Source of the DNA: Nonlabens ponticola
GTDB taxonomy: Bacteria > Bacteroidota > Bacteroidia > Flavobacteriales > Flavobacteriaceae
DNA: 32,000 bases
Assembly (NCBI RefSeq): GCF_003966335.1
Contig: NZ_CP034549.1
Location: 2,730,001 to 2,762,000 of the forward strand
Direction of reading: 5' to 3'
Below the pieces are notes generated by a model. The model did not search any database. It was not told the DNA's origin and worked only from the letters and a program-made list of their open reading frames with translations. This document shows, in pieces, positions 5,920 to 27,266 of the stretch. Numbering within the stretch: position 1 is the first letter of the stretch; the number at the start of each line of letters is the position of its first letter. The position numbers and the translations under genes were made by a program.

Positions 5920-5944
5920 AATCTATTCTTTGTCGCCGTTAGGA

Positions 5945-6214: not shown

Positions 6215-6216
6215 TC

Positions 6217-6768: not shown

Positions 6769-6770
6769 GA

Positions 6771-7082: not shown

Positions 7083-7090
7083 AACTTTTT

Positions 7091-7716: not shown

Positions 7717-7727
7717 GATAATACCTA

Positions 7728-7910: not shown

Positions 7911-7916
7911 AGCTTC

Positions 7917-8336
7917 TTACTCTTGATAGTCGCGTGCGACAATGAATTTTGTTTTAACTGGTAGTTTTTGAGCTGCTAGACGCAAAGCTTCTTGAGCGGT
8001 CGCCAAAGGCACACCAGAAACTTCAAACAATATTCTACCCGGCTTAACTACAGCTGCCCAATATTCCACAGCACCTTTACCTTTACCCATACGTACTTCA
8101 AGTGGCTTCTTAGTAATAGGTTTGTCTGGAAATATTTTGATCCACAATGAGCCTTCACGCTTCATGAAACGAGTAGCAGCAATACGAGCCGCCTCGATCT
8201 GACGTGAATTAATAAACTCAGAATCCAATGATTTGATTCCAAAAGTTCCGTAAGCTAGCTGATTACCTCTACCAGAATCACCTTTCATGCGACCCTTTTG
8301 CTGCTTTCTAAATTTAGTTTTTCTAGGTTGTAACAT
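7917..8336 (-). CDS. rplP: 50S ribosomal protein L16
   Basis: 139-aa ORF starting [16 protein letters not shown]. Confidence 0.98.
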
Positions 8337-8345
8337 TACTAGCTA

Positions 8346-9065: not shown

Positions 9066-9072
9066 ATTCTAA

Positions 9073-9480
9073 TTAGCTATTCTGTTGGTTAGACTCTCCT
9101 AAAACAAGAGTAACGTGATTTGATCTTTTTCTAATACGGTGCGCACGTCCTTGAGGTGCTGGACGCAACCTCTTCAACATTGTACCACCGTCTACTCTAA
9201 TTTCTTTAATAAATAAACCAGCATCTGCAACATCTCCTTCTTCATTTTTTGCCTGCCAGTTAGCTACTGCACTAAGTACAAGTTTATCTAATCTTCTCGC
9301 TGCTTCCTTAGAAGAGAATTTAAGGATGTTCAAAGCATCTTCTACTTTTTTACCGCGAATAACATCGGCAACTAATCTCATCTTGCGAGGAGATGTAGGA
9401 CAATTATTCAACTTAGCAAAAGCTATGTTTCTTCTCTCTTCCTTCAAGCGTTCTGCTGATTGTTTCTTACGAACTCCCAT
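9073..9480 (-). CDS. rplV: 50S ribosomal protein L22
   Basis: 135-aa ORF at the L22 position with L22 sequence. Confidence 0.97.
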
Positions 9481-9483
9481 AGC

Positions 9484-9762
9484 TTATTTCTTTCCTTTAT
9501 TTTTAGCGGCTGCATGTCCACGATAAGATCTAGTTGGTGAAAATTCACCAAGTTTATGACCTACCATGTTTTCAGTTACATATACAGGAACGAATTGTCG
9601 TCCATTATGAACTGCAATCGTCTGACCAACAAAATCTGGCGTAATCATAGATGCACGAGACCATGTTTTTATTACCGTTTTCTTACCTGACTCAACATTT
9701 TGAGCCACCTTAGATTCCAACTTATGAAATACATAAGGTCCTTTTTTTAATGAACGAGCCAT
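9484..9762 (-). CDS. rpsS: 30S ribosomal protein S19
   Basis: 92-aa ORF starting [11 protein letters not shown]. Confidence 0.98.
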
Positions 9763-9765
9763 AAT

Positions 9766-10590
9766 TTATTTCTTTCTACGTTCTAAAATATATTGAGTAC
9801 TAGCCTTGTTAAGATCTCTCGTTCTGAAACCTTTTGCAGGTATACCATTACGTGATCTTGGGTGTCCACCTGATGCACGACCTTCACCACCACCCATTGG
9901 GTGATCAACAGGATTCATCGCTACAGGTCTTGTACGTGGACGACGACCTAACCATCTACTGCGACCAGCTTTACCACCAACAACAAGTTGATGATCACTA
10001 TTACTAATTGCACCGATCGTTGCTAAACATTCTTGTAAAATCAACCTAGTTTCTCCAGATGGCATCTTTATAGTTGCATACTTACCATCCCTCGCCATCA
10101 GTTGAGCAAAAGAACCAGCACTGCGCGCAATAACGGCACCTTGACCCGGACGTAACTCAATACAACTAATAATAGACCCTAAAGGAATATTAGCAAGTTT
10201 CATAGCATTACCTACTTCAGGAGCTGTGCTATCGTTCGAAACGATATTCTGTCCTACCTGCAGACCGTTCTGTGCGATAACATAACGCTTCTCACCATCC
10301 TGGTAATTGACCAATGCGATGAAAGCGGTACGATTAGGATCGTACTCAATGGTAGATACCGTTGCCGGCACACCTTGCTTATCACGCTTAAAGTCTATGA
10401 TGCGGTAGCGACGTTTGTGTCCACCACCTTTGTAACGCATAGTCATACGACCCGTCGCGTTACGACCTCCAGAGCGTTTCTTAGGAGCCAAAAGGCTCTT
10501 CTCAGGCTTATCAGTAGTAATGGCATCATAGCCATTTACTACTCTAAAACGCTGCCCGGGAGTTACTGGTTTTAATTTTCTTACTGACAT
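9766..10590 (-). CDS. rplB: 50S ribosomal protein L2
   Basis: 274-aa ORF with [13 protein letters not shown]. Confidence 0.98.
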
Positions 10591-10601
10591 TATTGTCTTA
10601 A

Positions 10602-10892
10602 TTATAGATTGCTATAAAGGTCGATACTATCACCGTCCTTAAGTTGTACAAACGCTTTTTTACGAGCCGCTGTTTTACCAACTTGCATTCCTGATTTAGT
10701 GTACTTTGATTTACGATTAATGCGAGTATTCATGGTTCTAACTTTAAGAACCGTCACGCCGTAAACCTCTTCTACTTCTTTTTTGATCTGTACTTTGTTT
10801 GCCTTAGGAGACACTTCAAAACCATATCTATTCAACAACTCACTATCGCTCGTTGCTTTCTCGGTAATTATTGGTTTAATTAAAATGCTCAT
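10602..10892 (-). CDS. rplW: 50S ribosomal protein L23
   Basis: 96-aa ORF at the L23 position. Confidence 0.97.
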
Positions 10893-10895
10893 GAC

Positions 10896-11525
10896 TTATT
10901 TACTTAGATTTTGCTGAATTCCGTCGAGTGAACCTTCTAGCATCACAACATTATTAGCATGTAATATCTTGTAAGTGCTTAATTCTGAGTGAGTTACAAC
11001 ATCAGTACCCTTCAAATTTCGCGAAGACAAATATACATTATTATTTGATCCACCCAACACAAACAATGTTTTTTTATCATTAAGTCCTAAATCGCTTAAA
11101 ACCTGAATGAAATTCTTTGTTTTAGGAGCCTCAAAATTGAAGTCCTCCACTACGTGCAAAGCTCCTTCAGAAGCCTTTTGACTTAAAGCACTTTTACGCG
11201 CCAATCTTTTCTGAGCCTTGTTGAGTTTAAAACGATAATCACGTGGTACTGGACCAAAGATTCTACCACCACCTCTAAATACTGGAGACTTTATAGAACC
11301 AGCACGAGCTGTACCCGTACCTTTTTGTTTCTTGATCTTTCTTGTACTACCAACAATCTCTGCACGCTGCTTTGCTTTGTGCGTTCCTTGTCGTTGATTT
11401 GCTAGGTATTGCTTTACATCCAGATAGATGGCATGCTCACTAGGCTCTATTCCAAAAACATCGTCAGACAATTCTACCTGACGTCCTGTTTCTTTTCCTT
11501 TGATGTCTAATACTGCTACCTTCAT
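10896..11525 (-). CDS. rplD: 50S ribosomal protein L4
   Basis: 209-aa ORF. Its ATG overlaps the rplC stop (TAATG). Confidence 0.97.
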
Positions 11526-12142
11526 TATTTCTGAACGATTACATAAGAGTTCTTGTGTCCTGGAATTGCTCCCTTAACTACAAGTATATTTTGCTCAGGT
11601 ACAACCTTGAGCACTCTTAAATTTTGAACTTTTACTTTTTCATTACCCATCTGGCCCGCCATGCGCATTCCTTTGAATACTCTCGCAGGATATGACGCAG
11701 CACCGATAGAACCAGGAGCTCTCAAACGATTATGTTGACCGTGGGTCGCTTGACCTACACCACCAAAACCGTGACGCTTAACAACACCTTGAAATCCTTT
11801 ACCTTTTGATGTACCAGACACATCGACAAATTCACCTTCAGCAAACATATCAACAGTGATGGTATCACCTAATTTGTACTCCTCATCAAAACTCTTGAAC
11901 TCAGCAACTTTTCTCTTGACAGCAGTACCAGCTTTTTTAAAGTGCCCTTGAGCAGCTTTTGAAGCATTCTTGTCTGATTTGTCATCGAAACCTAGTTGCA
12001 GCGCGGCATAACCGTCTGTATCTTCAGTTCTGACTTGGGTAACGACACATGGTCCAGCTTGAATGACAGTACATGGAAGATTTTTTCCATTCTCGTCATA
12101 AATGCTAGTCATGCCAATCTTTTTTCCTATTAACCCAGACAT
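11525..12142 (-). CDS. rplC: 50S ribosomal protein L3
   Basis: 205-aa ORF starting [12 protein letters not shown]. Confidence 0.98.
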
Positions 12143-12170
12143 AATTTATTATTTGATTTAATTCTATTTG

Positions 12171-12190
12171 TTACGCTTTCGCGAAAGCGT
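12171..12190. repeat. Copy A of a short palindromic repeat. The perfect 18-bp palindrome ACGCTTTCGCGAAAGCGT lies at 12173-12190. Read on the minus strand the copy is CACGCTTTCGCGAAAGCGTAA.
   Basis: Read directly from the sequence. It sits in the 75-nt rpsJ-rplC spacer. The 18-nt string GCTTTCGCGAAAGCGTAA is shared exactly with 16093-16110 and 30039-30056. Confidence 0.9.
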
Positions 12191-12217
12191 GATATACATT
12201 ATCCGTAATAAAGGTAA

Positions 12218-12523
12218 TTACACCTTAATCTCTACTTCAACACCACTAGGTAGTTCTAATTTCATCAACGCATCTATCGTTTTTGAAGAAGAACTGTAAA
12301 TATCCAATAGTCTCTTGTACGAGCTCAATTCAAATTGCTCACGAGATTTCTTGTTAACGTGTGGTGATCTCAGTACAGTAAAGATCTTCTTGTGTGTTGG
12401 TAAAGGAATAGGTCCCGTAACAACAGCTCCTGTACTCTTAACGGTCTTAACAATCTTTTCAGCAGATTTATCTACCAGCATGTAATCGTAAGACTTTAAC
12501 TTGATTCTGATTTTTTGACTCAT
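12218..12523 (-). CDS. rpsJ: 30S ribosomal protein S10
   Basis: The ORF track extends to 12559. The conserved S10 N-terminus [13 protein letters not shown] starts at the ATG at 12521-12523, which removes the overlap with fusA (stop at 12534). Confidence 0.96.
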
Positions 12524-12533
12524 CTCTTGAAAA

Positions 12534-14675
12534 TTAGTTGTTACCTTTTGTTGCAGCAATTACTTCTTCACTGATATTAGAAGGTGTTTCTGCATAGTGT
12601 GAAAACTCCATAGTTGACGTTGCACGACCTGAGGACAATGTCCTAAGCGTTGTAACATATCCGAACATTTCAGAAAGAGGAACTTCAGCTTTAACCACCT
12701 TGGCTCCAGCTCTATCACCCATATCATTAACTTGACCACGACGTCTGTTCAAATCACCCACGATATCACCCATATTCTCTTCTGGAGTGATAACCTCTAC
12801 TTTCATAATAGGTTCAAGGATGACGGCACCAGCAGCTTTAGATGCAGCCTTGTATCCCATTTTTGCAGCAAGCTCAAATGATAATGCGTCAGAATCTACT
12901 GGGTGAAAAGAACCATCATTAAGTGTGATTCTCATACTATCCATCTCAAATCCAGCTAGTGGACCATTGGTCATTGCTTCTCTAAAACCTTTCTCGATTG
13001 CAGGGATAAATTCCTTAGGAATGTTACCACCTTTAATCTTGTTTTCAAATTGAAGACCTTCTTCTACTTTTCCTTCTTCATTTTCATGAGCAGGCTCCAT
13101 AGTAAAGACGATATCTCCAAATTTACCACGTCCACCCGATTGCTTTTTGTAAGTTTCACGGTGATCAGCGGCTCTTGTAATAGCTTCTTTGTATTCAACT
13201 TGTGGAGCACCTTGGTTCAACTCTACCTTGAACTCACGACGCATACGGTCAACAATAATATCAAGGTGTAGTTCGCCCATTCCCGAAATGATCGTCTGGC
13301 CAGAAGCCTCATCAGTTCTTACTTGGAACGTTGGATCCTCTTCTGCAAGTTTTGCAAGAGCCATACCCATTTTGTCAACATCTGCCTTTGTCTTAGGCTC
13401 TACTGCGATACCAATTACTGGATCAGGGAAATCCATGCTCTCAAGAACAATTGGATTCTTTTCATCAGTCATTGTATCACCAGTCTTAATATCCTTAAAA
13501 CCTACCGCAGCTCCAATATCTCCAGCCTCGATAAAATCGATAGCATTTTGCTTATTTGAGTGCATCTGATAAATACGAGAGATACGCTCTTTCTTACCTG
13601 AACGATTGTTCAAAATATAAGAACCTGCGTCCAATCGACCAGAATAAGCACGGAAGAATGCTAGACGACCCACAAAAGGATCAGTAGCAATCTTAAATGC
13701 TAGCGCTGCAAAAGGAGCACTCACATCTGGCTTGCGCAATTCTTGCTCTCCAGTATCTGGATTAGTACCCACAATACCTTCTTTATCTGTAGGAGCTGGC
13801 AAATAGCGACATACTGCATCTAGTAGGAACTGAACACCTTTATTTTTAAATGCAGATCCACAAATCATAGGAATGATGGACATGTCCATAACCGCAGCAC
13901 GCAGTGCAGCATGCACTTCGTCCTCGGTAATTGAGTCCTCATCCTCCATGAATTTCTCAAGAAGATTCTCATCATATCCAGCTACTTCCTCGATAAGCAG
14001 TGCGCGATATTTTCTCGCTTCTGCCTTCATATCTTCAGGAATGTCAATCACATCAAAAGTGGATCCTTGAGTCTCATCATGCCATACAATTGCACGGTTC
14101 TTAACAAGGTCAATAATTCCTTTGAAATCAGCCTCGTCACCTATATTAAGTACAATAGGCACAGCATTTGACTTCAACATATCTTTCACCTGCTGACAAA
14201 CAGCAAGAAAGTTTGAACCTTGACGGTCCATTTTATTCACAAAACCTATACGTGGGACCTTGTAATTGTCTGCAAGTCTCCAGTTAGTCTCAGACTGTGG
14301 CTCTACACCATCAACTGCACTAAATAGGAATACAAGACCATCAAGTACACGTAATGATCTGTTTACCTCTACGGTAAAGTCTACGTGACCAGGTGTGTCA
14401 ATAATATTAAAGTGGTAGTCCTTAGTCTCAGGTAATGGCTTTGCATTCTCCATCGGGAACTTCCAAGTACATGTTGTAGCTGCAGATGTAATGGTGATAC
14501 CACGTTCCTGCTCTTGCTCCATCCAGTCCATAGTCGCAGCACCATCGTGCACCTCACCAATCTTGTGACTTACACCAGTATAGTAAAGAATACGCTCTGT
14601 AGTAGTGGTTTTACCAGCATCAATGTGCGCAGCAATACCAATATTTCTAGTATATTTTAAATCTCTTTGTGCCAT
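12534..14675 (-). CDS. fusA: Elongation factor G
   Basis: 713-aa ORF with the GTPase G1 motif AHIDAGKTT and all EF-G domains. It lies between rpsG and rpsJ. Confidence 0.98.
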
Positions 14676-14678
14676 TTT

Positions 14679-15155
14679 TTAGAATCTAAAGTGTGAGAAT
14701 GCCTTGTTCGCCTCTGCCATCTTGTGGGTATCTGTCTTTTTCTTTACCGCAGCACCTTCTTCCTTAGCCGCGGCAAGAACTTCTGCAGCAAGCTTTTGTG
14801 AGAATGACTTCTCATTACGCTTTCTAGAATAGCTTATCAACCACTTCATAGCAGTAGAAATCTTTCTATCTGGACGTATTTGCATTGGGATTTGAAAAGT
14901 AGCACCACCAACACGGCGACTGCGTACTTCTACGTGAGGCATCACGTTAGAAAGAGCTTCCTTCCATATCTCTAGGGAATTTTTCTCCTCATCTTGATTT
15001 TTCTCTTCTACGATATCCATTGCATCATAAAAGATTTTAAAAGCTACTGACTTCTTACCGTGCAACATCATCATGTTGACAAAGCGAGTCACTAATTGAT
15101 CATTAAAACGCGGATCTGGAAGGATCGGGCGTTTTTTTGCCTGTCTTTTTCTCAT
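14679..15155 (-). CDS. rpsG: 30S ribosomal protein S7
   Basis: 158-aa ORF starting [17 protein letters not shown]. Confidence 0.98.
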
Positions 15156-15218
15156 TTCTTCTCTTTGAGTTTGTTATTAAAGCTTACTCACCGTAAAAAG
15201 TGAGCACTCTTAAAAATT

Positions 15219-15593
15219 TTACTTCTTAGGGCGTTTTGCACCATACTTAGACCTACGTTGTGTACGATCTGCAACACCAGCGGTGTCCAGCGCGCCACGC
15301 ACGATGTGATATCTAACTCCTGGTAAATCTTTAACCCTACCACCTCTAACCAATACTATCGAGTGTTCTTGTAGATTGTGTCCTTCTCCTGGGATGTATG
15401 CATTTACCTCCTTACCATTGGTAAGTCTCACACGCGCGACCTTTCTCATTGCTGAGTTAGGCTTCTTAGGCGTTGTAGTGTAAACACGAGTACATACTCC
15501 ACGACGTTGAGGACAAGAATCTAGAGCAGCCGATTTACTCTTCTTGGTTATTTTGGATCTTCCTTTACGTACTAATTGTGAAATCGTTGGCAT
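15219..15593 (-). CDS. rpsL: 30S ribosomal protein S12
   Basis: 124-aa ORF starting [12 protein letters not shown], with [12 protein letters not shown] and [15 protein letters not shown]. Confidence 0.98.
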
Positions 15594-15635
15594 ATTGTTT
15601 TACGCTAATAAATTAATCCCCTATTTTAGGGTCGG

Positions 15636-15665
15636 CAAAGGTATAAAACTTATTTGCTTATTCAA
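15636..15665 (-). promoter_or_regulatory. Candidate Bacteroidota sigma-A promoter for the ribosomal superoperon
   Basis: On the minus strand: TTG (15663-15665), a 19-nt spacer, then TACCTTTG (15636-15643). This matches the -33 TTG / -7 TAnnTTTG consensus. The box ends 42 nt upstream of the rpsL ATG. Confidence 0.45.
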
Positions 15666-15757
15666 ATCTCATTCTCAAGTTTTTACGAGATATTTTTCCT
15701 GATGCAAGATTTCCTTCATTTTGAGCGTTGCCATCTCAACAGTTTTCACAACGTACC

Positions 15758-17422
15758 ATGAGGCATTCCTTAACCTTCATAATGCTATCTATATTACTAT
15801 TGAGTGTCAATGGTCAAACCAGCATCTTAAAACTGGAGATTTTGAAATCAGCAAGTTCACCAGAGGCGAATACTTCTATCGTCATCAAGAAAAATTCCTA
15901 TGAAGAAATCCTTGAATCTTCTGACTCTATATATAAGGACTACCTAGAGAAAGGGTTTTTCTCTTCGAATAGAAGCAATATTAGAGTTGTTGACAGTAAC
16001 GTTTTTGCTCAGAGAATCTATTTAGAAAAAAGATTCTACTCTATCTATCTAGAAGAATCAAACAAAGATGCAGATGAGATGGTGGTGAGTCAGCTTTCGC
16101 GAAAGCGTAAACATTTTAATTCTCTGGAACAATTCAAACAGTATTTGAACCTTGAACAAAAATTATTGCAAGATGAAGGTTACCCATTTGCCAAGGTAAG
16201 TCTTGAAAAACTCGATCTGCTATCCAAAACAGATACTGCGGTTGCCTTTATTAATGTGAACAAAAATGAAGCTAGAACTTTAAATAGAATTATAGTCAAG
16301 GGCTACCCAGGATATCCAAAGGGTCTAACGAAAAAAATGCTGCGCAAAACAACGGCGTACAACCCTAAGTCAATTAATAGAATATTGAATGTAGTAGAAA
16401 ACACTCCTTATATAAAGACTACTAGACAGCCCGAGGCGTTATTTAAAAAAGACAGCACACTGCTTTATTTATACCTTGAACGCGTGAAAAGCAATCAAGC
16501 AGATGGGCTGATAGCATTTAACAACAACGATGAGGATAGACTGGAACTTACAGGATACCTGCAGGCCAATCTTCTCAACAACTTTAATCTGGGTGAATCT
16601 ATCGCCTTTGAATATCGCAATGCAGATGGTGATCAGTCAATTCTTGATCTTGCTGCCACAGTACCCTATGTTCTACTTTCTTCTATAGGAATAGATGGAC
16701 GTCTTAACATTACCAGACGTGATTCAACCTATCAGAATAGCACCATCTCTATAGGAGCCAAGTATCCTATTGCACCACAAATTAACATAGGATTGAGCTA
16801 TTTAAATAAGACATCAAATGCTACCACACCAATTGCCGGCGAGAATCGTAATGAAGATTTCAATGTGAACGGCGTGAGCCTATCAAGTAACTATGTAAGA
16901 CCTCGTAATAACTTGTTGCAACCTATAAATCTCAATGCAACCATCACCGCCACAATACAGACAAGGGATGGTGAATTGGTTAAGGATGACCAACTAATGA
17001 TACATGGGGAAATCAATAAAGTATCTAAGCTAAGTCCCAGGCTCTTTATTATGAATAGACTGAATGGTTTCTACCTTGAAACAGATAATCTGCAATTCAA
17101 CGAGCTCACCCAAATAGGTGGTCAACAATCTATCAGAGGTTTTAATGTGAATAGCATAGATACGTCTGCTTTCTTGAGCACTCAAAGTGAGCTTAGATAT
17201 GTATTGAATGATCAAATTTACCTGCACACCATTGCCGACGCAGGTGTATTTAATGAATTCACCTCAAGAAATTCGCAATATTTATACTCAATTGGTGCAG
17301 GATTAGCAATTTTAACAAAAGCTGGTGTTTTGAGAATATCAGCTAGCAACGGCAGGTTTGTTGACGCTAAAGACGCGGTTTCCAGCACAATAGCTGACAT
17401 AAATCTTCTCGTTAGATTTTGA
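15758..17422 (+). CDS. Outer-membrane beta-barrel protein, Omp85 superfamily (BamA/TpsB(ShlB)-like)
   Basis: The ORF track starts at TTG 15728. I prefer ATG 15758, which gives MRHSLTFIMLSILLLSVNGQ, a signal peptide. The protein has an (I/V)RGF loop-6-type motif (SIRGF, 17132-17143 = IRGF) and a C-terminal beta-signal ending VRF. Family assignment is by motif only. Confidence 0.6.
   Translation: MRHSLTFIMLSILLLSVNGQTSILKLEILKSASSPEANTSIVIKKNSYEEILESSDSIYKDYLEKGFFSSNRSNIRVVDSNVFAQRIYLEKRFYSIYLEESNKDADEMVVSQLSRKRKHFNSLEQFKQYLNLEQKLLQDEGYPFAKVSLEKLDLLSKTDTAVAFINVNKNEARTLNRIIVKGYPGYPKGLTKKMLRKTTAYNPKSINRILNVVENTPYIKTTRQPEALFKKDSTLLYLYLERVKSNQADGLIAFNNNDEDRLELTGYLQANLLNNFNLGESIAFEYRNADGDQSILDLAATVPYVLLSSIGIDGRLNITRRDSTYQNSTISIGAKYPIAPQINIGLSYLNKTSNATTPIAGENRNEDFNVNGVSLSSNYVRPRNNLLQPINLNATITATIQTRDGELVKDDQLMIHGEINKVSKLSPRLFIMNRLNGFYLETDNLQFNELTQIGGQQSIRGFNVNSIDTSAFLSTQSELRYVLNDQIYLHTIADAGVFNEFTSRNSQYLYSIGAGLAILTKAGVLRISASNGRFVDAKDAVSSTIADINLLVRF
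16093..16110. repeat. Copy B of the short palindromic repeat (GCTTTCGCGAAAGCGTAA; perfect palindrome 16093-16106)
   Basis: Lies inside the Omp85-like CDS. Codons CTT TCG CGA AAG CGT encode LSRKR. Confidence 0.9.
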
Positions 17423-17479
17423 AATGTTACCAGATTGTTAAGTATTCTTAAAATAAACTTGAAAAACATTTTTTAAAAG

Positions 17480-17510
17480 TTGTTTTATTAACTGTTTTTT
17501 GGCACTTTTG
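17480..17510 (+). promoter_or_regulatory. Weak candidate promoter upstream of the SusC-like gene
   Basis: TTG (17480-17482), a 20-nt spacer, then CACTTTTG (17503-17510), which deviates from TAnnTTTG at position 1. The box ends 28 nt before the ATG and overlaps three TTGGC direct repeats. Confidence 0.25.
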
Positions 17511-17538
17511 GCGTTGGCTAATTCAAATAAATCTAAAC

Positions 17539-20500
17539 ATGAAAACAAAATTAAATGGAATCTTAACACTATTTCTAGTGTTAGTTGTGCAAGTAGCTTT
17601 TGCACAGCAAACAGTTACCGGTAAGGTAATTGACGCGAGCGGCGAACCCATACTGGGCGCAACTGTTCTCGTACGTGGTAGCTCAAACGCTACTACTACT
17701 GATTTTGATGGTAACTATTCTATCCAGGCTAACGCTACAGATGTGCTATCATTCTCATTCTCAGGATACGATTCTAAGAATGTAACAGTTGGCAATCAAA
17801 CAACTATAAATGTTACCCTATCTGCTTCTCTTGAAGCTGTAGTAGTAACAGGATATCGTACTACTACAGCGCCTCGTAGTAATGTAGCTAGTACAACAAT
17901 ATCAGCTGAAAAGATTGAAAATAGGCCTAACGCTTCTTTCGTTCAAACCTTAAGTGGTCAAGTAGCTGGTTTGAACATTACCACTGGTAGTGGTCAACCT
18001 GGCGCTAACAGTTTGGTTCAAATACGTGGTGTCAACTCTATTAATGGTAATACAGAGCCATTATTTATTATAGATGGTGCTCCTGTTGATGAAGATAACT
18101 TTAGATCTCTTAACCCACAGGATATTGCTTCGATATCTGTACTTAAAGATGCTGGTGCTACTGCAATCTACGGTAACCGTGGTGCAAATGGTGTAATCAT
18201 CATAAAAACTAAAGCTGGTGGATTTGAGCAACCATTGTCTATAAGAACTAGTAGTATTTTATCATACACGACTCTTCCTGACAATGACTACAATCTTTAT
18301 GACGCTGCTGGATATTTGAGACTTGAGAGAGAATTTGGCGTAGGTCGTGGTGCTGGTAGAGCAACAGGTGGTGTACCATTAACGGATGCTGAGATTGATG
18401 CAGCAGAAAGTACGGACTGGCTAGATGTATTCTTTAGAACTGGTGTTACTAAAAATAATACGGTAAGCTTAAGTAGTGGTGGTAAGAAAACTACTCAATA
18501 CACAAGTTTAGGTTACTTTGAGCAGGATGGTATTCTTGTGCAGTCAAGTCTACAGCGTTTCAACTTTAGAAACAATATGACTGGAAGAAGTGAAAATGAT
18601 AAGTTTAACTACGCTTCTAATTTCACTGCTAACTACTCAACTAATGATGAGCCTAACTCTATTGGTAGTGGTGCGGTTAACAGAAACTACTTACTAGGAG
18701 CAAACTCTAGTTTGCCTTACTTACTTGTTTCTGACTATACACCAGGTGAAGGTGGTAGCCTAGCGCCTCTTTTGAGAAACGCGCCATTGTTCCTTCTAGA
18801 CCGTCTAGAAACTTATACTCGTAAAGAGGAAGAAATCAAGCTTATTGGTTCATTCACTGCTTCATGGGAATTTGCAAAAAACTTGACAGCTAGATCTGTC
18901 TCTGGTGCAGATTATCAAAATGTTATATTGACTAGAAGCGAAGGACCTACATCTTTTAACTCTGTTTTCTTTGCCGAAACCGGTGAAGATTTGCCTGGTA
19001 CACAAGACCAGCAGACTACTAGACAATTTACATTTAATCAAACTACATCGTTGAATTACAACAATACGTGGGGTAAACACTCTCTAGATGTTGGACTATT
19101 TACTGAATATTTTAAGGCGCACCTTAGAACATTTGGTTTCCGTCAGCAAGGATTGGATCCTAGAACCTTCTCTCCTGGTGATGGGTCTGGTTTCGTAGGA
19201 TTTGATAGAGGACTTGGTTTATACGATGATATTGCAAATGCTAACATATTGAATGCAGGTTTATTTTCATACTTTGGATCAGCTGACTACGATTATGACA
19301 GCAAATACGGTTTAGGTCTCGCCTATCGTAGAGATGCCTCTTACCGTTTTGCACAGAGTAATCGTTACGCTACCTTCTACTCCATTTCTGGTAGATGGAA
19401 CATTGGTAAAGAAGACTTTATGGATGACTCCGTATTTGATGCATTGAAATTAAGAGCATCTTACGGTACGTCTGGTAATCAACGTATAACAGGCCCTGGG
19501 TATTTTTCAGGAAATAATCTTACACGTGACCTTTATGCAACTGCACCAACTTACGGTGGACAACAAGCGCTTACTCTATTCACCCCAGGTGGTATAGCCG
19601 GTGTTATAGCGAATCCATTCCTAGAATGGGAAACTGTAGCTCAAGCAAACGTTGGTATCGATTTTGAAATATTTGATAGTAGATTGAGAGGTTCTATCGA
19701 TGGTTACATCAAGAAAACTGAATCCCTGTTCCAAAACACGCCAACGTCTGCGTTAGTAGGAACTTTTGGTTTGAGTGCGAACACGGGTAGTCTGTATAAT
19801 AGAGGTTTTGATTTTGAATTATACTATGATGTGATTAGAGGTCAAGAAAATGGAGACTTTGAACTTGATGTGTTTGTAAACGGTAACTTCAACAAAACCG
19901 AATTGGAGGACATTCCTTCTGAAGCTGGATTCATTCCTGGTATTGGACAGAACGGTGGTAGATTGTTTGAGTACTATGCAGTAAGACAAGTAGGTGTAAA
20001 TCCAGCGAATGGTGAGCTTCTTTTCTTAGACGCAGATGGAAATCTAACGGAGTCACCTAATGTTGAATCTGACCGTGTATTCCTAGACAAGAACATCATT
20101 CCAGAATTTCAAGGTGGATTTGGTCTTAACGCAAGTTTCAAAGGATTTTATGTTCAATCTCAATTCAACTATGTAGTAGGTGTTGATAGATTTGACGGTG
20201 ACCTTGCTGGATTCCAGGATGAGGATGACATAGGTCAATTCAATTTATCTAGAGACCTTGAGCGTGCATGGACACCTGATAACAGAATTACTGACATTCC
20301 TTCATTAAATGCTACAAATCTTAACCTGGATAATACAGACAGATACTTGAGAGAAGCAGATTACCTAAGAATGAGATTCTTATCATTAGGATATAACTTC
20401 CAACCTCAGATGCTTGAAAAAGCAGGTTTGAATAGTCTAAATATCTTTGTTAATGCTGAAAACCTTGTGACTTTCACTAAGTGGAGAGGATTTGATGTAG

Positions 20501-20574
20501 AAGCAAGAGATAACGGATCGAGAGGTTACCCTACCCCAAAGATCATCTCACTAGGTGTTGAAATAGGAATCTAA
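17539..20574 (+). CDS. SusC/RagA family TonB-linked outer membrane protein
   Basis: 1011 aa. It has a signal peptide, then a carboxypeptidase-regulatory-like domain (VTGKVIDASGEPILGATVLVRGSSNATTTDFDGNYSI), a TonB-box-like AVVVTGY, and a plug (FIIDGAPVD...ISVLKDAGATAIYGNRGANGVIIIKTK). A SusD-like gene follows directly. There is no N-terminal STN domain. Confidence 0.93.
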   Translation: MKTKLNGILTLFLVLVVQVAFAQQTVTGKVIDASGEPILGATVLVRGSSNATTTDFDGNYSIQANATDVLSFSFSGYDSKNVTVGNQTTINVTLSASLEAVVVTGYRTTTAPRSNVASTTISAEKIENRPNASFVQTLSGQVAGLNITTGSGQPGANSLVQIRGVNSINGNTEPLFIIDGAPVDEDNFRSLNPQDIASISVLKDAGATAIYGNRGANGVIIIKTKAGGFEQPLSIRTSSILSYTTLPDNDYNLYDAAGYLRLEREFGVGRGAGRATGGVPLTDAEIDAAESTDWLDVFFRTGVTKNNTVSLSSGGKKTTQYTSLGYFEQDGILVQSSLQRFNFRNNMTGRSENDKFNYASNFTANYSTNDEPNSIGSGAVNRNYLLGANSSLPYLLVSDYTPGEGGSLAPLLRNAPLFLLDRLETYTRKEEEIKLIGSFTASWEFAKNLTARSVSGADYQNVILTRSEGPTSFNSVFFAETGEDLPGTQDQQTTRQFTFNQTTSLNYNNTWGKHSLDVGLFTEYFKAHLRTFGFRQQGLDPRTFSPGDGSGFVGFDRGLGLYDDIANANILNAGLFSYFGSADYDYDSKYGLGLAYRRDASYRFAQSNRYATFYSISGRWNIGKEDFMDDSVFDALKLRASYGTSGNQRITGPGYFSGNNLTRDLYATAPTYGGQQALTLFTPGGIAGVIANPFLEWETVAQANVGIDFEIFDSRLRGSIDGYIKKTESLFQNTPTSALVGTFGLSANTGSLYNRGFDFELYYDVIRGQENGDFELDVFVNGNFNKTELEDIPSEAGFIPGIGQNGGRLFEYYAVRQVGVNPANGELLFLDADGNLTESPNVESDRVFLDKNIIPEFQGGFGLNASFKGFYVQSQFNYVVGVDRFDGDLAGFQDEDDIGQFNLSRDLERAWTPDNRITDIPSLNATNLNLDNTDRYLREADYLRMRFLSLGYNFQPQMLEKAGLNSLNIFVNAENLVTFTKWRGFDVEARDNGSRGYPTPKIISLGVEIGI

Positions 20575-20589
20575 AAATTATAAAACAAA

Positions 20590-22194
20590 ATGAAAAACTA
20601 TAAATTATTAATATTAGGTTTCCTAGGCCTTGCCGTACTTACTGCAAGTTGTGAGGATGCCATTGACATTATACAGCCAGGAGAACTACCTGCTGAGAAC
20701 GCTGTATTGAATCTTGACGATTTAGAGAGTGTAACTATCGCAACTTATGCCTTGCTAGATCTCTCAGGAGAGATAGGTTGGACATCAGCCTTTACCGATG
20801 AGATTACAAGAGCACTCTCATGGGGTGGACAGTGGAATCAAGAACTGGATTTTCAACTTGATGCTGCAAGTGCAGCCTCAAGTGAATTCTGGCTCACTAA
20901 CTATAGAACGATCAATCAGGTGAACAGATCCCTCGTACAGGCAGAGACCTTGAGAGAAACTGTATTAGGTGGTTCTGATGACGATGATGATTCTGACGAT
21001 GATGATGATGACGATGACGTAGATTTTGATGATGACAGGTATAATGACCTAGTCGCTCAACTGAGAGTTTTAAGAGCTTACTCTTACTTCCAGTTGCTAA
21101 ACTTCTACTCTACTGACTTGATGGACGACAGCGCCTTGGGTGTGCCGCTCATTGACTTTGTTCCTGAACTTGACGTACAACTATTGAGAAGTACTAACGG
21201 CGAAGTATTTGGTCTTATAGAGTCTGACCTTGATTATGCCGATGAGAATCTTCAAACTGAATTTAGTACGACCTTTATCAGTACAGATATGGTACAAGCC
21301 CTAAGAGCTCGTATCGCTAATGAAAGAGGTGACTATGAAGAAGCTGAAGATCTAGCTACTGAACTTCTTGACATCTACGGTCTTGCTGATTCAGATGACT
21401 ATCCTAGCATCTTTACCGACGCAAGCAATGAAGAAATCATCTTTAAGCTGGAAAGAGCTAACGGTGGTGGCGCTCCTTATGATCAACAAGGTGCTACTGG
21501 TAGCGCTTTTGCTGGTGGATGGGTTGGAGCCAACTATGCTTTTGGTGGACCTGGTCGTGGTGGATCTCCTTACATGGAGGTGGATCGTAACCTTTTCAAC
21601 CTAGTCAACAATGAAGATGATACTAGTGAGGATGTACGTCGTGGATTGATCATCGATGAGGCAACTTCTCTCATTGATGAAGATTTCCCTGATGTAGGAT
21701 TTGATTACCGTGAATCTGACCAATTGATCGTTAACAAGTATAGAGGATCAGAAGGACAGCCACTCATGAATGACATCAAAGTATTCAGATCTTCTGAGAT
21801 GTTGTTTATCGCTGCTGAGGCACACGTAGCTCAAGGTGAGCTTGACGATGCTGAAGAGTTGATAGAAGATCTTCTTGATGCAAGGATTGATGACTTTGAC
21901 GATGACGGAGCTGACCTATTTGAGGCTGATGTAGAATTTGACGATGCAGAAGAAGCTTATCAAGTGATCCTTGAGCAAAGACGTATCGAACTGGCTTTTG
22001 AAGGACACAGATGGAAAGACATCAAAAGATTGGGACAAAGAGCAAACAGAGGTGTTGATAGAAACCCTCTAGACTGCGAATTCAATGGTGCATGTACTTT
22101 ATCGCCTGACAGCTTTAAATTCACTTTGCCTCTACCAATCGCAGAATTTAATGCTAACCCAGGTATCAGAGAACAACAAAACCCTGGTTACTAA
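20590..22194 (+). CDS. SusD/RagB family nutrient-binding outer membrane lipoprotein, copy 1
   Basis: 534 aa. It has a lipoprotein signal (LTASC) and the SusD-family C-terminal signature EQRRIELAFEGHRWKDIKRLG. It lies immediately downstream of the SusC-like gene. Confidence 0.92.
   Translation: MKNYKLLILGFLGLAVLTASCEDAIDIIQPGELPAENAVLNLDDLESVTIATYALLDLSGEIGWTSAFTDEITRALSWGGQWNQELDFQLDAASAASSEFWLTNYRTINQVNRSLVQAETLRETVLGGSDDDDDSDDDDDDDDVDFDDDRYNDLVAQLRVLRAYSYFQLLNFYSTDLMDDSALGVPLIDFVPELDVQLLRSTNGEVFGLIESDLDYADENLQTEFSTTFISTDMVQALRARIANERGDYEEAEDLATELLDIYGLADSDDYPSIFTDASNEEIIFKLERANGGGAPYDQQGATGSAFAGGWVGANYAFGGPGRGGSPYMEVDRNLFNLVNNEDDTSEDVRRGLIIDEATSLIDEDFPDVGFDYRESDQLIVNKYRGSEGQPLMNDIKVFRSSEMLFIAAEAHVAQGELDDAEELIEDLLDARIDDFDDDGADLFEADVEFDDAEEAYQVILEQRRIELAFEGHRWKDIKRLGQRANRGVDRNPLDCEFNGACTLSPDSFKFTLPLPIAEFNANPGIREQQNPGY
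20977..21036 (+). repeat. (GAY)n low-complexity tract encoding DDDDDSDDDDDDDDVDFDDD. An identical tract lies at 23562-23621.
   Basis: Read directly. 17 of 20 codons are GAT or GAC, at aa 130-149 of the SusD-like protein. Confidence 0.95.
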
Positions 22195-22215
22195 TCCTAA
22201 AATAAAATTAATACA

Positions 22216-23058
22216 ATGAAAAAATATCTAATACTTGGCGCACTAGCCATCACAAGCCTAATAGGCTGTGACAAGGATGACGAGCTAAGGGTCTTTGACG
22301 CTGAGGGCGGACAGACACTTATAGGCTTTGTCAACGAATCAGAAGATCTAAGAATCGTTGAAAACGGAACTGGAACTCTAAGAATTCCAGTAAATGTTAG
22401 CACCGTTTCTGATCAGGATAGAACTTTCAACATCTCACTCAACGATGATTCTGATGCTCTTGAAGACTCTTATGACCTGCCGGATACCTTTACCGTACCA
22501 GCTGGTGAGTACACAGGCTTTATTGAGATCAATGGAGTGGATGAGGATGTAGAGGTAGATCCTAGAGGTATCATCATTGACCTTGTTGGAAATGGTGACG
22601 ATGTAGTTGTAGAAGATGATAACAGCCAGGTGGTCGTTAGAGTATTCCAAGTGTGTCCGGTACCTGAAGACTACCTTGTGGGTAGTTACTCATTTGAAAA
22701 TGGTGTTACCGTGACTGGACCAACCTTTGGAGATCAAAACTTCAATGAAGGTGATGTTGAGATAACTATAGGCCCTGCTGAGACCCAGCGTACCTTCACT
22801 AGACAACTGCTTCCTGCAAATGGTGGCAACATGCAAAGTGTGGTTATCGATCTAGGTTGTGAAAGCGCTCTTAGGTTTGGTACAACACTAGCCACTGGTT
22901 TTACTAACCTAATCTACGTACCAAATCCAAATAGCACCGCTACTTACGATCTGGATGACGATGAGGAGTTCACCGTTGACTACATAGAGAACCCTAACAA
23001 TGCTTTTGCTCCTACTTCTGGAGTAGCAACGTTTGAAATTGAAAAAAATGATGACTAG
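22216..23058 (+). CDS. Acidic surface lipoprotein of unknown function (SusE/F-position accessory protein), copy 1
   Basis: 280 aa with lipobox SLIGC. It sits directly after the susD-like gene and no family could be recognised by eye. Confidence 0.8.
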   Translation: MKKYLILGALAITSLIGCDKDDELRVFDAEGGQTLIGFVNESEDLRIVENGTGTLRIPVNVSTVSDQDRTFNISLNDDSDALEDSYDLPDTFTVPAGEYTGFIEINGVDEDVEVDPRGIIIDLVGNGDDVVVEDDNSQVVVRVFQVCPVPEDYLVGSYSFENGVTVTGPTFGDQNFNEGDVEITIGPAETQRTFTRQLLPANGGNMQSVVIDLGCESALRFGTTLATGFTNLIYVPNPNSTATYDLDDDEEFTVDYIENPNNAFAPTSGVATFEIEKNDD

Positions 23059-23085
23059 GTAACAACCTCAAATCATTACACAATC

Positions 23086-23117
23086 AAGCCCTTGATATCA
23101 TCAAGGGCTTTTTTATT
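23086..23117 (+). terminator. Rho-independent terminator after lipoprotein copy 1
   Basis: AAGCCCTTGAT-ATC-ATCAAGGGCTT (11-bp arms) followed by a T-run (TTTTTTATT). Confidence 0.75.
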
Positions 23118-23174
23118 GATTCAAACGCAACCTTTATGACAATCACGCATCTATAAGGAAATAAACCTTTAAAA

Positions 23175-24779
23175 ATGAAAAACTATAAATTATTAATATT
23201 AGGTTTCCTAGGCCTTGCCGTACTTACTGCAAGTTGTGAGGATGCCATTGACATTATACAGCCAGGAGAACTACCTGCTGAGAACGCTGTATTGAATCTT
23301 GACGATTTAGAGAGTGTAACTATCGCAACTTATGCCTTGCTAGATCTCTCAGGAGAGATAGGTTGGACATCAGCCTTTACCGATGAGATTACAAGAGCAC
23401 TCTCATGGGGTGGACAGTGGAATCAAGAACTGGATTTTCAACTTGATGCTGCAAGTGCAGCCTCAAGTGAATTCTGGCTCACTAACTATAGAACGATCAA
23501 TCAGGTGAACAGATCCCTCGTACAGGCAGAGACCTTGAGAGAAACTGTATTAGGTGGTTCTGATGACGATGATGATTCTGACGATGATGATGATGACGAT
23601 GACGTAGATTTTGATGATGACAGGTATAATGACCTAGTCGCTCAACTGAGAGTTTTAAGAGCTTACTCTTACTTCCAGTTGCTAAACTTCTACTCTACTG
23701 ACTTGATGGACGACAGCGCCTTGGGTGTGCCGCTCATTGACTTTGTTCCTGAACTTGACGTACAACTATTGAGAAGTACTAACGGCGAAGTATTTGGTCT
23801 TATAGAGTCTGACCTTGATTATGCCGATGAGAATCTTCAAACTGAATTTAGTACGACCTTTATCAGTACAGATATGGTACAAGCCCTAAGAGCTCGTATC
23901 GCTAATGAAAGAGGTGACTATGAAGAAGCTGAAGATCTAGCTACTGAACTTCTTGACATCTACGGTCTTGCTGATTCAGATGACTATCCTAGCATCTTTA
24001 CCGACGCAAGCAATGAAGAAATCATCTTTAAGCTGGAAAGAGCTAACGGTGGTGGCGCTCCTTATGATCAACAAGGTGCTACTGGTAGCGCTTTTGCTGG
24101 TGGATGGGTTGGAGCCAACTATGCTTTTGGTGGACCTGGTCGTGGTGGATCTCCTTACATGGAGGTGGATCGTAACCTTTTCAACCTAGTCAACAATGAA
24201 GATGATACTAGTGAGGATGTACGTCGTGGATTGATCATCGATGAGGCAACTTCTCTCATTGATGAAGATTTCCCTGATGTAGGATTTGATTACCGTGAAT
24301 CTGACCAATTGATCGTTAACAAGTATAGAGGATCAGAAGGACAGCCACTCATGAATGACATCAAAGTATTCAGATCTTCTGAGATGTTGTTTATCGCTGC
24401 TGAGGCACACGTAGCTCAAGGTGAGCTTGACGATGCTGAAGAGTTGATAGAAGATCTTCTTGATGCAAGGATTGATGACTTTGACGATGACGGAGCTGAC
24501 CTATTTGAGGCTGATGTAGAATTTGACGATGCAGAAGAAGCTTATCAAGTGATCCTTGAGCAAAGACGTATCGAACTGGCTTTTGAAGGACACAGATGGA
24601 AAGACATCAAAAGATTGGGACAAAGAGCAAACAGAGGTGTTGATAGAAACCCTCTAGACTGCGAATTCAATGGTGCATGTACTTTATCGCCTGACAGCTT
24701 TAAATTCACTTTGCCTCTACCAATCGCAGAATTTAATGCTAACCCAGGTATCAGAGAACAACAAAACCCTGGTTACTAA
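23175..24779 (+). CDS. SusD/RagB family lipoprotein, copy 2 (nucleotide-identical to copy 1)
   Basis: The 534-aa ORF is identical to 20590-22194 at every line I compared. Confidence 0.9.
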   Translation: MKNYKLLILGFLGLAVLTASCEDAIDIIQPGELPAENAVLNLDDLESVTIATYALLDLSGEIGWTSAFTDEITRALSWGGQWNQELDFQLDAASAASSEFWLTNYRTINQVNRSLVQAETLRETVLGGSDDDDDSDDDDDDDDVDFDDDRYNDLVAQLRVLRAYSYFQLLNFYSTDLMDDSALGVPLIDFVPELDVQLLRSTNGEVFGLIESDLDYADENLQTEFSTTFISTDMVQALRARIANERGDYEEAEDLATELLDIYGLADSDDYPSIFTDASNEEIIFKLERANGGGAPYDQQGATGSAFAGGWVGANYAFGGPGRGGSPYMEVDRNLFNLVNNEDDTSEDVRRGLIIDEATSLIDEDFPDVGFDYRESDQLIVNKYRGSEGQPLMNDIKVFRSSEMLFIAAEAHVAQGELDDAEELIEDLLDARIDDFDDDGADLFEADVEFDDAEEAYQVILEQRRIELAFEGHRWKDIKRLGQRANRGVDRNPLDCEFNGACTLSPDSFKFTLPLPIAEFNANPGIREQQNPGY

Positions 24780-24800
24780 TCCTAAAATAAAATTAATACA

Positions 24801-25643
24801 ATGAAAAAATATCTAATACTTGGCGCACTAGCCATCACAAGCCTAATAGGCTGTGACAAGGATGACGAGCTAAGGGTCTTTGACGCTGAGGGCGGACAGA
24901 CACTTATAGGCTTTGTCAACGAATCAGAAGATCTAAGAATCGTTGAAAACGGAACTGGAACTCTAAGAATTCCAGTAAATGTTAGCACCGTTTCTGATCA
25001 GGATAGAACTTTCAACATCTCACTCAACGACGATTCTGATGCTCTTGAAGACTCGTATGACCTGCCGGATACCTTTACCGTACCAGCTGGTGAGTACACA
25101 GGCTTTATTGAGATCAATGGAGTGGATGAGGATGTAGAGGTAGATCCTAGAGGTATCATCATTGACCTTGTTGGAAATGGTGACGATGTAATTGTAGAAG
25201 ACGATAACAGCCAGGTGGTCGTTAGAGTATTCCAAGTGTGTCCGGTACCTGAAGATTACCTTGTAGGTAGCTACTCATTTGAAAATGGGATCACCGTGAC
25301 TGGACCAACCTTTGGAGATCAAAACTTCGATGAAGGTGATGTTGAGATAACTATAGGCCCTGCTGAGACCCAGCGTACCTTCACTAGACAACTGCTTCCT
25401 GCAAATGGTGGTAACGTGCAAAGTGTGGTTATCGATCTAGGTTGTGAGAGCGCTCTTAGGTTTGGTACAACACTAGCCACTGGTTTTACTAACCTAATCT
25501 ACGTACCAAATCCGAATAGCACAGCTACTTATGATCTGGATGACGATGAGGAGTTCACCGTGGACTACATCGAGAACCCAAACAATGCTTTTGCTCCTAC
25601 TTCTGGTGTGGCAACGTTTGAAATTGAAAAAAATGATGACTAG
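24801..25643 (+). CDS. Acidic surface lipoprotein, copy 2 (4 aa differences from copy 1)
   Basis: 280-aa ORF. It differs from copy 1 by V131I, V164I, N177D and M206V plus 18 synonymous changes. Confidence 0.8.
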   Translation: MKKYLILGALAITSLIGCDKDDELRVFDAEGGQTLIGFVNESEDLRIVENGTGTLRIPVNVSTVSDQDRTFNISLNDDSDALEDSYDLPDTFTVPAGEYTGFIEINGVDEDVEVDPRGIIIDLVGNGDDVIVEDDNSQVVVRVFQVCPVPEDYLVGSYSFENGITVTGPTFGDQNFDEGDVEITIGPAETQRTFTRQLLPANGGNVQSVVIDLGCESALRFGTTLATGFTNLIYVPNPNSTATYDLDDDEEFTVDYIENPNNAFAPTSGVATFEIEKNDD

Positions 25644-25670
25644 GTAACAACCTCAAATCATTACACAATC

Positions 25671-25702
25671 AAGCCCTTGATATCATCAAGGGCTTTTTTA
25701 TT
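25671..25702 (+). terminator. Rho-independent terminator after lipoprotein copy 2
   Basis: Same hairpin and T-run as 23086-23117. Confidence 0.75.
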
Positions 25703-25742
25703 GATTCAAACGCAACCTTAGTATCACGATAGATACTATTCA

Positions 25743-25750
25743 TATCTTTG
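25743..25750 (+). promoter_or_regulatory. Candidate -7 box (TATCTTTG) for rlmB
   Basis: A perfect TAnnTTTG that ends 4 nt before the rlmB ATG. No clear -33 TTG lies at the expected spacing. Confidence 0.3.
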
Positions 25751-25754: not shown

Positions 25755-26489
25755 ATGAGCAAGGAACAACAAATTCACGGACTAAGACCGATTATAGAAG
25801 CTATTGAAAATGGCGAAGAAATTTCCAAAATATACTTCCTGAAAGAAGGAAACGGTGTGCTTTTCAATGAACTCAAGCATAAAGCAAAACAAGCAAACAT
25901 AGCTACTTCTTATGTTCCTGAAGAAAAGCTCTACAAACTCACAAAAGAAAACCATCAAGGCGCAGTAGCTAAATTATCACCAGTAAAGTTTGCTGACCTA
26001 GAAATCATTCTAGAAACAACTGATATGACAGCTAATCCAATATTCTTGTTACTCGATGGAATAACAGATGTTGGCAACTACGGTGCTATCATTAGAACGG
26101 CAGAATGCACCGGTGTGACAGCGATTGTGGTATCAGAAAAAGGCTCTGCTCCCATCAACGCTACGACTGTTAAGACAAGCGCTGGCGCTGTATTTAATAT
26201 ACCTATCTGTAAAGTAAATCACCTCAAGGATGCGATCTACCTAATGCAAGCATATGATATAGCTCTAGTTGGTGCTAATGAAAAAGCCAGTGAAAGCGTT
26301 TTTGAATCTGAACTAAATAAACCTATAGGTATTATCATGGGTAGCGAGGATCGAGGTATCAATCCATCGACCCTAAAAATTTTGGATCAGCAAATAAAAC
26401 TTCCCTTAAAGGGTACCATAGGGTCACTTAATGTATCGGTTGCTTGTGGAGCGATTTTATTTGAAGCAATACGACAAAGAATGTTTTGA
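25755..26489 (+). CDS. rlmB: 23S rRNA (guanosine-2'-O)-methyltransferase, SpoU/TrmH family (RlmB-like)
   Basis: 244 aa with an N-terminal substrate-binding domain and SpoU methylase motifs (DGITDVGNYGAIIRTAE, IIMGSEDRGI, SLNVSVACGAILFE). Confidence 0.85.
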   Translation: MSKEQQIHGLRPIIEAIENGEEISKIYFLKEGNGVLFNELKHKAKQANIATSYVPEEKLYKLTKENHQGAVAKLSPVKFADLEIILETTDMTANPIFLLLDGITDVGNYGAIIRTAECTGVTAIVVSEKGSAPINATTVKTSAGAVFNIPICKVNHLKDAIYLMQAYDIALVGANEKASESVFESELNKPIGIIMGSEDRGINPSTLKILDQQIKLPLKGTIGSLNVSVACGAILFEAIRQRMF

Positions 26490-26492: not shown

Positions 26493-27167
26493 CTATTCTT
26501 CTTCATCTATTAGGAATGGAGCAAAATCTCCATTCTCATCAAATTGCTGTAAAAACCAATCTTCTTGTTCTGTTCCACGTATAGTTTTTGGGATTTTAGC
26601 TTTCACTTCCAAATCGGTTGTATTTATAACCATGGCTAGTATTATGCCTGCAATCGCTCCGGCCAGATGGCCTTCCCAAGAAATAGCATTATCTATAGGG
26701 AACACATACCACACCAGCGACCCATAAAAGAAAACGACTGCAAAACTCAAAGCGACTAATTCCTTTGATTTTTTGATCACTCCTTTACTGATAAGAAAAC
26801 TTGCTAAAAAATAGATCAGTCCACTCGCTCCTATATGATAAGACTCTCTACCTATAAGCCATGTCATAAATCCTGAGAGTAAAACTGCCAACATAAAAAT
26901 TCTACCAGCCTCGTACCTGAAGAAATAGAACAACGCTATTCCCAAAAGTAAAATAGGTGGCGTGTTACTCCATAAGTGGTTCAAATCAGCATGTAAAAAA
27001 GGGCTGCATACGATTCCTATGAGCCCAGAAAACGCTCTAGGCATGATGCCATACTCATTGAGGTTTAAGCGGGTATGAGTATTTAGCCAGAAGCTAATCC
27101 ACATCGACAATACCAATAAAACGGGTACACCATATGTGTAAATATCAAATTTATAACTTCGGGACAT
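26493..27167 (-). CDS. Rhomboid family intramembrane serine protease
   Basis: 224-aa polytopic protein with HADLNHLWSN, a catalytic GxSG (GASGLIY) and a catalytic His (HLAGAIAG). Confidence 0.85.
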   Translation of the reverse strand: MSRSYKFDIYTYGVPVLLVLSMWISFWLNTHTRLNLNEYGIMPRAFSGLIGIVCSPFLHADLNHLWSNTPPILLLGIALFYFFRYEAGRIFMLAVLLSGFMTWLIGRESYHIGASGLIYFLASFLISKGVIKKSKELVALSFAVVFFYGSLVWYVFPIDNAISWEGHLAGAIAGIILAMVINTTDLEVKAKIPKTIRGTEQEDWFLQQFDENGDFAPFLIDEEE

Positions 27168-27258: not shown

Positions 27259-27266
27259 TAAATTTG
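27259..27266 (+). promoter_or_regulatory. Candidate -7 box (TAAATTTG) for rarA
   Basis: A perfect TAnnTTTG that ends 4 nt before the rarA ATG. The nearest upstream TTG is 24 nt away, which is longer than typical. Confidence 0.3.

Follow-up and report, generated by a model that had tools for sequence, protein, structure and literature searches.

Within a 32,000-nt stretch of the Nonlabens ponticola genome (hereafter the window, in whose numbering all coordinates are given), a cassette comprising a SusD-like lipoprotein gene, an accessory surface lipoprotein gene and a terminator is present twice in direct orientation, between a single SusC-family transporter gene and rlmB. We interpret this array, with moderate confidence, as a real tandem duplication specific to the N. 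ponticola lineage that was followed by the import of an allelic patch of ~0.6 kb. Under this scenario, the 2.55-kb cassette would have been duplicated in tandem in the N. ponticola lineage, its two units being joined through 37 bp of unrelated filler in what was probably an illegitimate join. Homologous recombination with DNA of a diverged conspecific or sister lineage would later have replaced ~0.6 kb within one of the two lipoprotein genes, so that the patch would reflect the divergence of orthologous alleles under purifying selection, and the sequences on either side of it are still identical. The order of these events and the external donor are inferred, and the replaced copy could be either one.

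A base-by-base self-comparison of the window, shifted by 2585 bp, revealed two direct repeats of equal length (Table 1). Identity began at 20587/23172, three bases 5′ of the SusD start codon, and stopped at 23134/25719, and the offset comparison detected no similarity between the units past these positions. An automated repeat search returned the same period, but listed just the first 300 nt of the repeat. There were no differences across 20587–22445 (1859 bp), a tract that includes the SusD open reading frame (ORF), the 21 nt separating it from the lipoprotein ORF and the initial 230 nt of the latter, and none across 23026–23134 (109 bp), which includes the terminator. Overall, the two lipoprotein gene-bearing units were 99.1% identical, and the SusC gene lay outside the repeat. 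These results agree with the original prediction, made from the sequence alone, which had given the same repeat coordinates and 2,585-bp period, complete identity over the first 1,859 bp, and an identical last 109 bp including the terminator.

All 22 differences between the units were confined to 580 bp of the lipoprotein gene (3.8% divergence), and all were substitutions, with no insertions or deletions (indels). Eighteen were synonymous, and the remaining four resulted in conservative replacements (V131I, V164I, N177D and M206V), with codon 164 carrying two changes. Third codon positions accounted for 18 of the 22 differences, and the ratio of transitions to transversions was 15:7. Synonymous and non-synonymous rates across the patch (Nei-Gojobori method, lipoprotein codons 77–270) were dS 0.147 and dN 0.009, respectively, giving a dN/dS of 0.061. 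The probability that 22 sites placed at random in 2548 bp would all fall within a span of at most 580 bp was 5.5e-13. Likewise, had the identical coding part diverged to the same degree as the patch at synonymous sites, ~53 synonymous differences would be expected across its 400 synonymous sites, compared with none observed (P = 1.5e-25 at the proportion of synonymous differences, pS, of the patch). Given this step pattern (22 of 22 differences in 580 bp and none elsewhere), uniform decay following a single duplication is excluded, as the original prediction had argued. Its exact count of single-base differences within 22446–23025 at about 3.8%, its division of these into 18 synonymous changes and the same four replacements, and its hand estimate of a dN/dS well below 0.2 were all upheld, the last by the codon-based value. 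The borders of the patch coincided with no gene or domain boundary. A foreign copy could not be identified from the G+C content of third codon positions or from the direction of change (13 AT-to-GC versus 7 GC-to-AT). We also considered polarizing the four replacements with an outgroup, and rejected this option given that the nearest lipoprotein was just 39% identical.

To place the array in context, syntenic loci were compared from Nonlabens sp. BBFL7, Nonlabens xylanidelens, a Joint Genome Institute (JGI) metagenome contig (L081), Kordia (3 loci), Mesoflavibacter (2 loci), and one metagenome-assembled genome. The best matches in a scan of genome contigs were congeners at 47% SusC identity, and N. 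ponticola itself was not among the contigs returned. The gene order rpsL, Omp85-like gene, SusC, SusD, lipoprotein and rlmB was common to the window and the single-unit relatives: in BBFL7, N. xylanidelens and contig L081, a single SusD-lipoprotein unit separated SusC from rlmB, and none of the three loci contained direct repeats. The original prediction had proposed counting copies at orthologous loci as a check, and the presence of one unit in all three implies that the duplication is derived in the N. ponticola lineage. Other genera exhibited different configurations at the same locus. Kordia carried two complete SusC-SusD-lipoprotein modules in tandem (locus L002, positions 3444–16287; also L003), which are old and diverged, with 71–80% identity between copies over short stretches only. 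Mesoflavibacter (locus L005, positions 13071–18243) carried additional lipoprotein genes. The locus has therefore expanded repeatedly in different genera.

Several features of the array are consistent with a young duplication and a single later replacement. The absence of differences in the 1968 bp outside the patch indicates that the duplication is young. As identity was found on both sides of the patch, one internal replacement suffices to account for the mosaic, whereas gene conversion between the copies requires two separate recent tracts. The substitution pattern (dN/dS, transition bias and lack of indels) fits allelic divergence, whereas constraint on a redundant duplicate should relax: drift of one copy as a redundant duplicate predicts ~32 replacements versus the four observed (P = 9e-10). 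No third N. ponticola paralog was found in the protein collection, which means that no annotated gene of this genome served as the donor. Moreover, copy 2 begins 57 nt behind a predicted terminator (hairpin of -15.8 kcal/mol), and the junction contains no TAnnTTTG box (the Bacteroidota -7 box), although the motif count across the window was at chance, making this weak evidence. Together, the terminator and the missing box mean that long-term selection on both copies is not assured.

The principal alternative, which we regard as possible but distinctly less probable, is an old duplication with concerted evolution, in which both copies would have been under purifying selection since a divergence of at least dS 0.15. 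Recent conversion or unequal exchange would then have homogenized the first 1859 bp and, in a separate tract, the last 109 bp, leaving a 580-bp island that may have been shielded by the density of its own mismatches or by selection to keep two forms of the lipoprotein. An arrangement of long identical tracts next to a divergent one is the classic outcome of conversion between paralogs, the low dN/dS shows constraint on both alleles, and the two old diverged modules of Kordia demonstrate that module duplications can persist at this locus. A tandem repeat also needs selection to survive at all. However, conversion calls for two independent tracts that are both very recent relative to the island, as the 95% upper bound on pS in the 5′ identical 1859 bp was 0.0075, compared with 0.133 in the patch. 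The identity of the 109-bp tail is likewise not explained by chance (P of no difference = 0.015 if the tail had diverged by 3.8%, and between 6e-4 and 6e-6 if it had diverged at the synonymous rate). Selection for two variants is not evident, given that the island lies off gene and domain boundaries and that the replacements are conservative. Furthermore, copy 2 sits behind a strong predicted terminator, with no recognizable promoter within the 57 nt that precede its start codon, and BBFL7, N. xylanidelens and contig L081 carry a single unit, though the nearest of them is distant (SusC 76% identical). A related but unlikely possibility is that the array represents an early stage of a Kordia-type expansion, in which selection retains the duplicated SusD-lipoprotein cassette of a major outer-membrane complex and conversion continually homogenizes it, while the 580-bp island in the most rapidly evolving surface protein is protected, so that two lipoprotein variants would be displayed on one SusC. 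If true, the array would show, while still under way, how loci of this kind generate diversity in their surface lipoproteins.

A number of considerations weigh against our favored interpretation of duplication followed by import. Neither a donor allele nor a second N. ponticola genome was found by protein searches, two metagenome scans, and exact look-ups; the look-ups of both lipoproteins and SusD in a contig index gave no match, and the metagenome scan with the lipoprotein found no relative. Import is consequently inferred rather than observed. Perfect tandem repeats of 1.9 kb are prone to loss in the presence of RecA, and persistence of the array until an import could occur implies selection for two copies, a requirement equally compatible with conversion. 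The nearest relative is distant (SusC 76% and lipoprotein 39% identical), so its single copy does not place the duplication later than dS 0.15, and the likelihood argument contrasting one event with two is a rough estimate. The clustering of differences itself is equally predicted by import and by conversion between paralogs.

We also asked what the junction between the units reveals. The 37-bp filler aligned no better than chance (p = 0.15–0.89) with the SusC-SusD spacer, the region upstream of rlmB, the rest of the window, or the relatives, and a junction 26-mer had no match in metagenome contigs. Filler of unrelated sequence would suggest that the units were joined illegitimately and not through homology. 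The 6-mer AACCTT closes repeat unit 1 (23129–23134) and recurs 35 nt on, at 23164–23169, near the end of the filler; the pair brackets a 29-nt core and may have been left by the mechanism that joined the units, or may be coincidental. More complex histories can be built on these features, and we consider them improbable: the array may vary within the population, with unequal recombination between strains reshuffling it, or the duplication, patch and filler may have arrived together in one recombination event with foreign DNA. Such histories would accommodate a filler that has no matching source and a core bracketed by the 6-mer, at a locus that is highly prone to rearrangement and fast divergence in the relatives. 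Nevertheless, a foreign second unit should also differ in SusD, yet the SusD copies were identical over ~346 synonymous sites, and the extra steps are not required by anything seen.

Exact repeats of 1859 bp are structures that assemblers can mishandle, and the species is known from one assembly, so we considered whether a single unit had been resolved as two tandem copies from strain polymorphism or chimeric reads, during either assembly or culture. This is very improbable. The array is internal to a single contig of 2,872,100 bp, which means that it is no overlap of contig ends, and its flanks are unique and different on each side (SusC upstream and rlmB downstream), in an order kept in relatives. 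The 37-bp junction matches nothing else, and a mis-resolved single unit would offer no source for it. The 22 substitutions, which are mostly synonymous, filtered by selection and free of indels, are unlike long-read error (a long-read origin of the assembly being our assumption, based on its single contig), and two strains that differ in 580 bp of one gene alone are implausible. Both lipoprotein copies have been deposited from this contig as separate proteins (AZQ45011 and AZQ45013), as has SusC (AZQ45009). An artefact is thus unlikely because of the unique syntenic flanks, the unmatched junction, and the selection-filtered substitutions without indels. Of the three explanations put forward in the original prediction, the assembly artefact is accordingly not supported by the junction, the flanks or the type of substitution. 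Conversion of an older duplicate and import of an allelic segment are both possible, and the sequence appears to favor import moderately.

Since the differences affect just one portion of a gene for a surface protein, they could also suggest that the 3′ region of the lipoprotein gene is diversified in a programmed way, whether by a diversity-generating retroelement or by an invertase cassette system. Variable repeats of diversity-generating retroelements are usually 100–150 bp long, well short of the 580-bp patch. The differences were not adenine-specific, and family searches of the window proteins detected no reverse transcriptase or recombinase gene. We rejected retroelement- or cassette-driven variation on the basis of the synonymous bias (18 of 22 changes), and the probability left to it is negligible.

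The pace of divergence differed greatly between the surface module and the housekeeping genes around it. Amino acid identity to the nearest relative (contig L081), which is distant, was 76% for SusC, 64% for SusD and 39% for the lipoprotein, so that divergence rises in this order, compared with 97% for rpsG and 85% for rarA. Corresponding values for BBFL7 and N. xylanidelens were 47% (SusC), 33–36% (SusD) and 32–33% (lipoprotein), versus 92–94% (rpsG), 94–95% (fusA) and 84% (rarA). The module therefore diverges far faster than its fixed housekeeping flanks, namely rpsL on one side and rlmB, rhomboid and rarA on the other. The Omp85-like gene occupies the same position in BBFL7, N. xylanidelens, contig L081, Kordia and Mesoflavibacter, and its product is highly variable, with 37–49% identity among relatives.

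Table 1. Features of the tandem array and surface module in the N. ponticola window.
Feature	Position	Strand	Basis
Repeat unit 1 (2548 bp): SusD-1, lipoprotein-1, terminator	20587..23134	+	Offset comparison
Repeat unit 2 (2548 bp): SusD-2, lipoprotein-2, terminator	23172..25719	+	Offset comparison
Divergent patch, copy 1 (22 substitutions vs 25031-25610)	22446..23025	+	Offset comparison
Divergent patch, copy 2	25031..25610	+	Offset comparison
Junction filler, unique 37 bp between units	23135..23171	.	No significant similarity elsewhere
SusD-like lipoprotein gene, copy 1 (534 aa)	20590..22194	+	PF07980, PF14322; identical to copy 2
SusD-like lipoprotein gene, copy 2	23175..24779	+	ORF and identity to copy 1
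Surface lipoprotein (SLP) gene, copy 1 (280 aa), SusE-like accessory position	22216..23058	+	Lipoprotein signal peptide; deposited AZQ45011
Surface lipoprotein gene, copy 2 (I131, I164, D177, V206)	24801..25643	+	Identical to AZQ45013 of Nonlabens ponticola
Predicted intrinsic terminator after lipoprotein-1	23086..23117	+	11-bp stem (23086-23110), 3-nt loop, T run; hairpin -15.8 kcal/mol
Predicted intrinsic terminator after lipoprotein-2	25671..25702	+	Terminator search
Omp85/BamA-TamA family outer membrane protein gene, first of conserved surface module	15728..17422	+	PF01103; NCBI name BamA/TamA family protein
SusC/RagA TonB-dependent transporter gene, single copy, outside repeat	17539..20574	+	TIGR04056 692 bits full length; deposited AZQ45009
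rlmB, conserved right flank	25755..26489	+	TIGR00186; position kept in all relatives

Annotations of the duplicated genes agree with the susD-like and lipoprotein labels of the original prediction, based on the two SusD domain families (PF07980 and PF14322) and a lipoprotein signal peptide. The signal peptide of the accessory protein ends at Cys18 and is followed by the acidic stretch DKDDE; SusD likewise has a lipoprotein cysteine followed by acidic residues. We take this cysteine-plus-acidic pattern in both proteins to resemble the Bacteroidota surface-export signal. SusC contains Plug and CarboxypepD_reg domains and the TIGR04057 signature, and its best PDB sequence matches were SusC homologs and RagA. 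Accordingly annotated from sequence, the SusC and SusD family pair is predicted to encode a SusC/SusD-type TonB-dependent uptake complex. The 280-aa lipoprotein had no Pfam or NCBIfam match. Its AlphaFold model (mean predicted local distance difference test, pLDDT, 72.8) contains two beta-sandwich domains, and the best Foldseek matches in the PDB were BACOVA_03322 (DUF1735), BACOVA_00267 and BT3507 (E values 2e-9 to 7e-7). All are surface lipoproteins of Bacteroides polysaccharide utilization loci (PULs), matched at low template modeling (TM) scores (about 0.3) with the domains set at different angles. The model thus predicts that the downstream lipoprotein has the fold of known PUL surface lipoproteins. 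Upstream of the module, on the opposite strand, are rpsL, rpsG, fusA and the ribosomal protein operon, and the downstream neighbors are rlmB, rhomboid, rarA, HAD, DUF7033, radC and yaaA. Family searches of the window proteins revealed no carbohydrate-active enzyme or dedicated regulator beside susC/susD, and the locus is therefore not a PUL in the strict sense.

The event belongs to known classes of genome change, namely tandem duplication, recombination mosaics and concerted evolution. Mosaic genes produced by inter-strain recombination include the pbp genes of Streptococcus and Neisseria and imported core-gene patches. The N. ponticola patch resembles these in being an uninterrupted block shorter than 1 kb that diverges by a few percent, mainly at synonymous sites, and is sharply bordered by identical sequence. 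It differs in that the comparison is with a tandem paralog in one genome, and no donor allele was seen. Concerted evolution of paralogs by conversion is known from tufA/tufB in Salmonella and E. coli and from rRNA operons, which share with the array long identical tracts between paralogs and constraint on both copies. However, those pairs are old and shared by related species, whereas here the compared relatives carry a single unit and two recent tracts are needed. Tandem susC/susD or accessory-lipoprotein expansions in PULs, such as those at the Kordia and Mesoflavibacter locus, exhibit the same modular growth of surface-exposed SusCD parts, although they are old and strongly diverged, while the N. 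ponticola copies are nearly identical and exclude SusC.

The arrangement also recalls an abundant surface complex of Flavobacterium johnsoniae. Fjoh_0402 is a TamA-like Omp85 protein encoded next to Fjoh_0403–0405 (PMC12045153), and Fjoh_0403, Fjoh_0404 and Fjoh_0405 are SusC, SusD and a structurally unrelated lipoprotein termed 'SusE', which form the most abundant starch utilization system (SUS) complex of the outer membrane, of unknown function (PMC12611786). As in the window, the order is a non-lipoprotein Omp85-family gene, SusC, SusD and a surface lipoprotein, with no carbohydrate-active enzymes near; unlike in the window, no SusD or SusE duplication is described there (PMC12611786; PMC12045153). 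Judged from gene order alone, the window locus probably corresponds to Fjoh_0402–0405. Homologs retrieved with the Omp85-like protein as query included none from F. johnsoniae, and no Flavobacterium locus with this synteny was present among the 80 loci retrieved. If the link holds, turnover of copy number and alleles may reflect selection on a dominant surface structure, for example by phages or grazers, which is speculative.

On its own, the case is one of routine genome plasticity, and its wider interest lies in a fast-evolving, repeatedly expanding module amid housekeeping genes. The case also calls for caution when duplicates are dated by average identity, since it shows that recombination can introduce a patch into a young tandem copy.

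Two minor observations concern the right flank. The rhomboid-family gene beside rlmB (26493–27167, minus strand) was unusually divergent, at 47–48% identity to congeners versus 60–78% for rlmB and 84–85% for rarA. Perfect TAnnTTTG boxes occur at 25743–25750 and 27259–27266, 4 nt upstream of the rlmB and rarA ATG, respectively, which suggests leaderless or near-leaderless transcripts; the count of this motif across the window was at chance.

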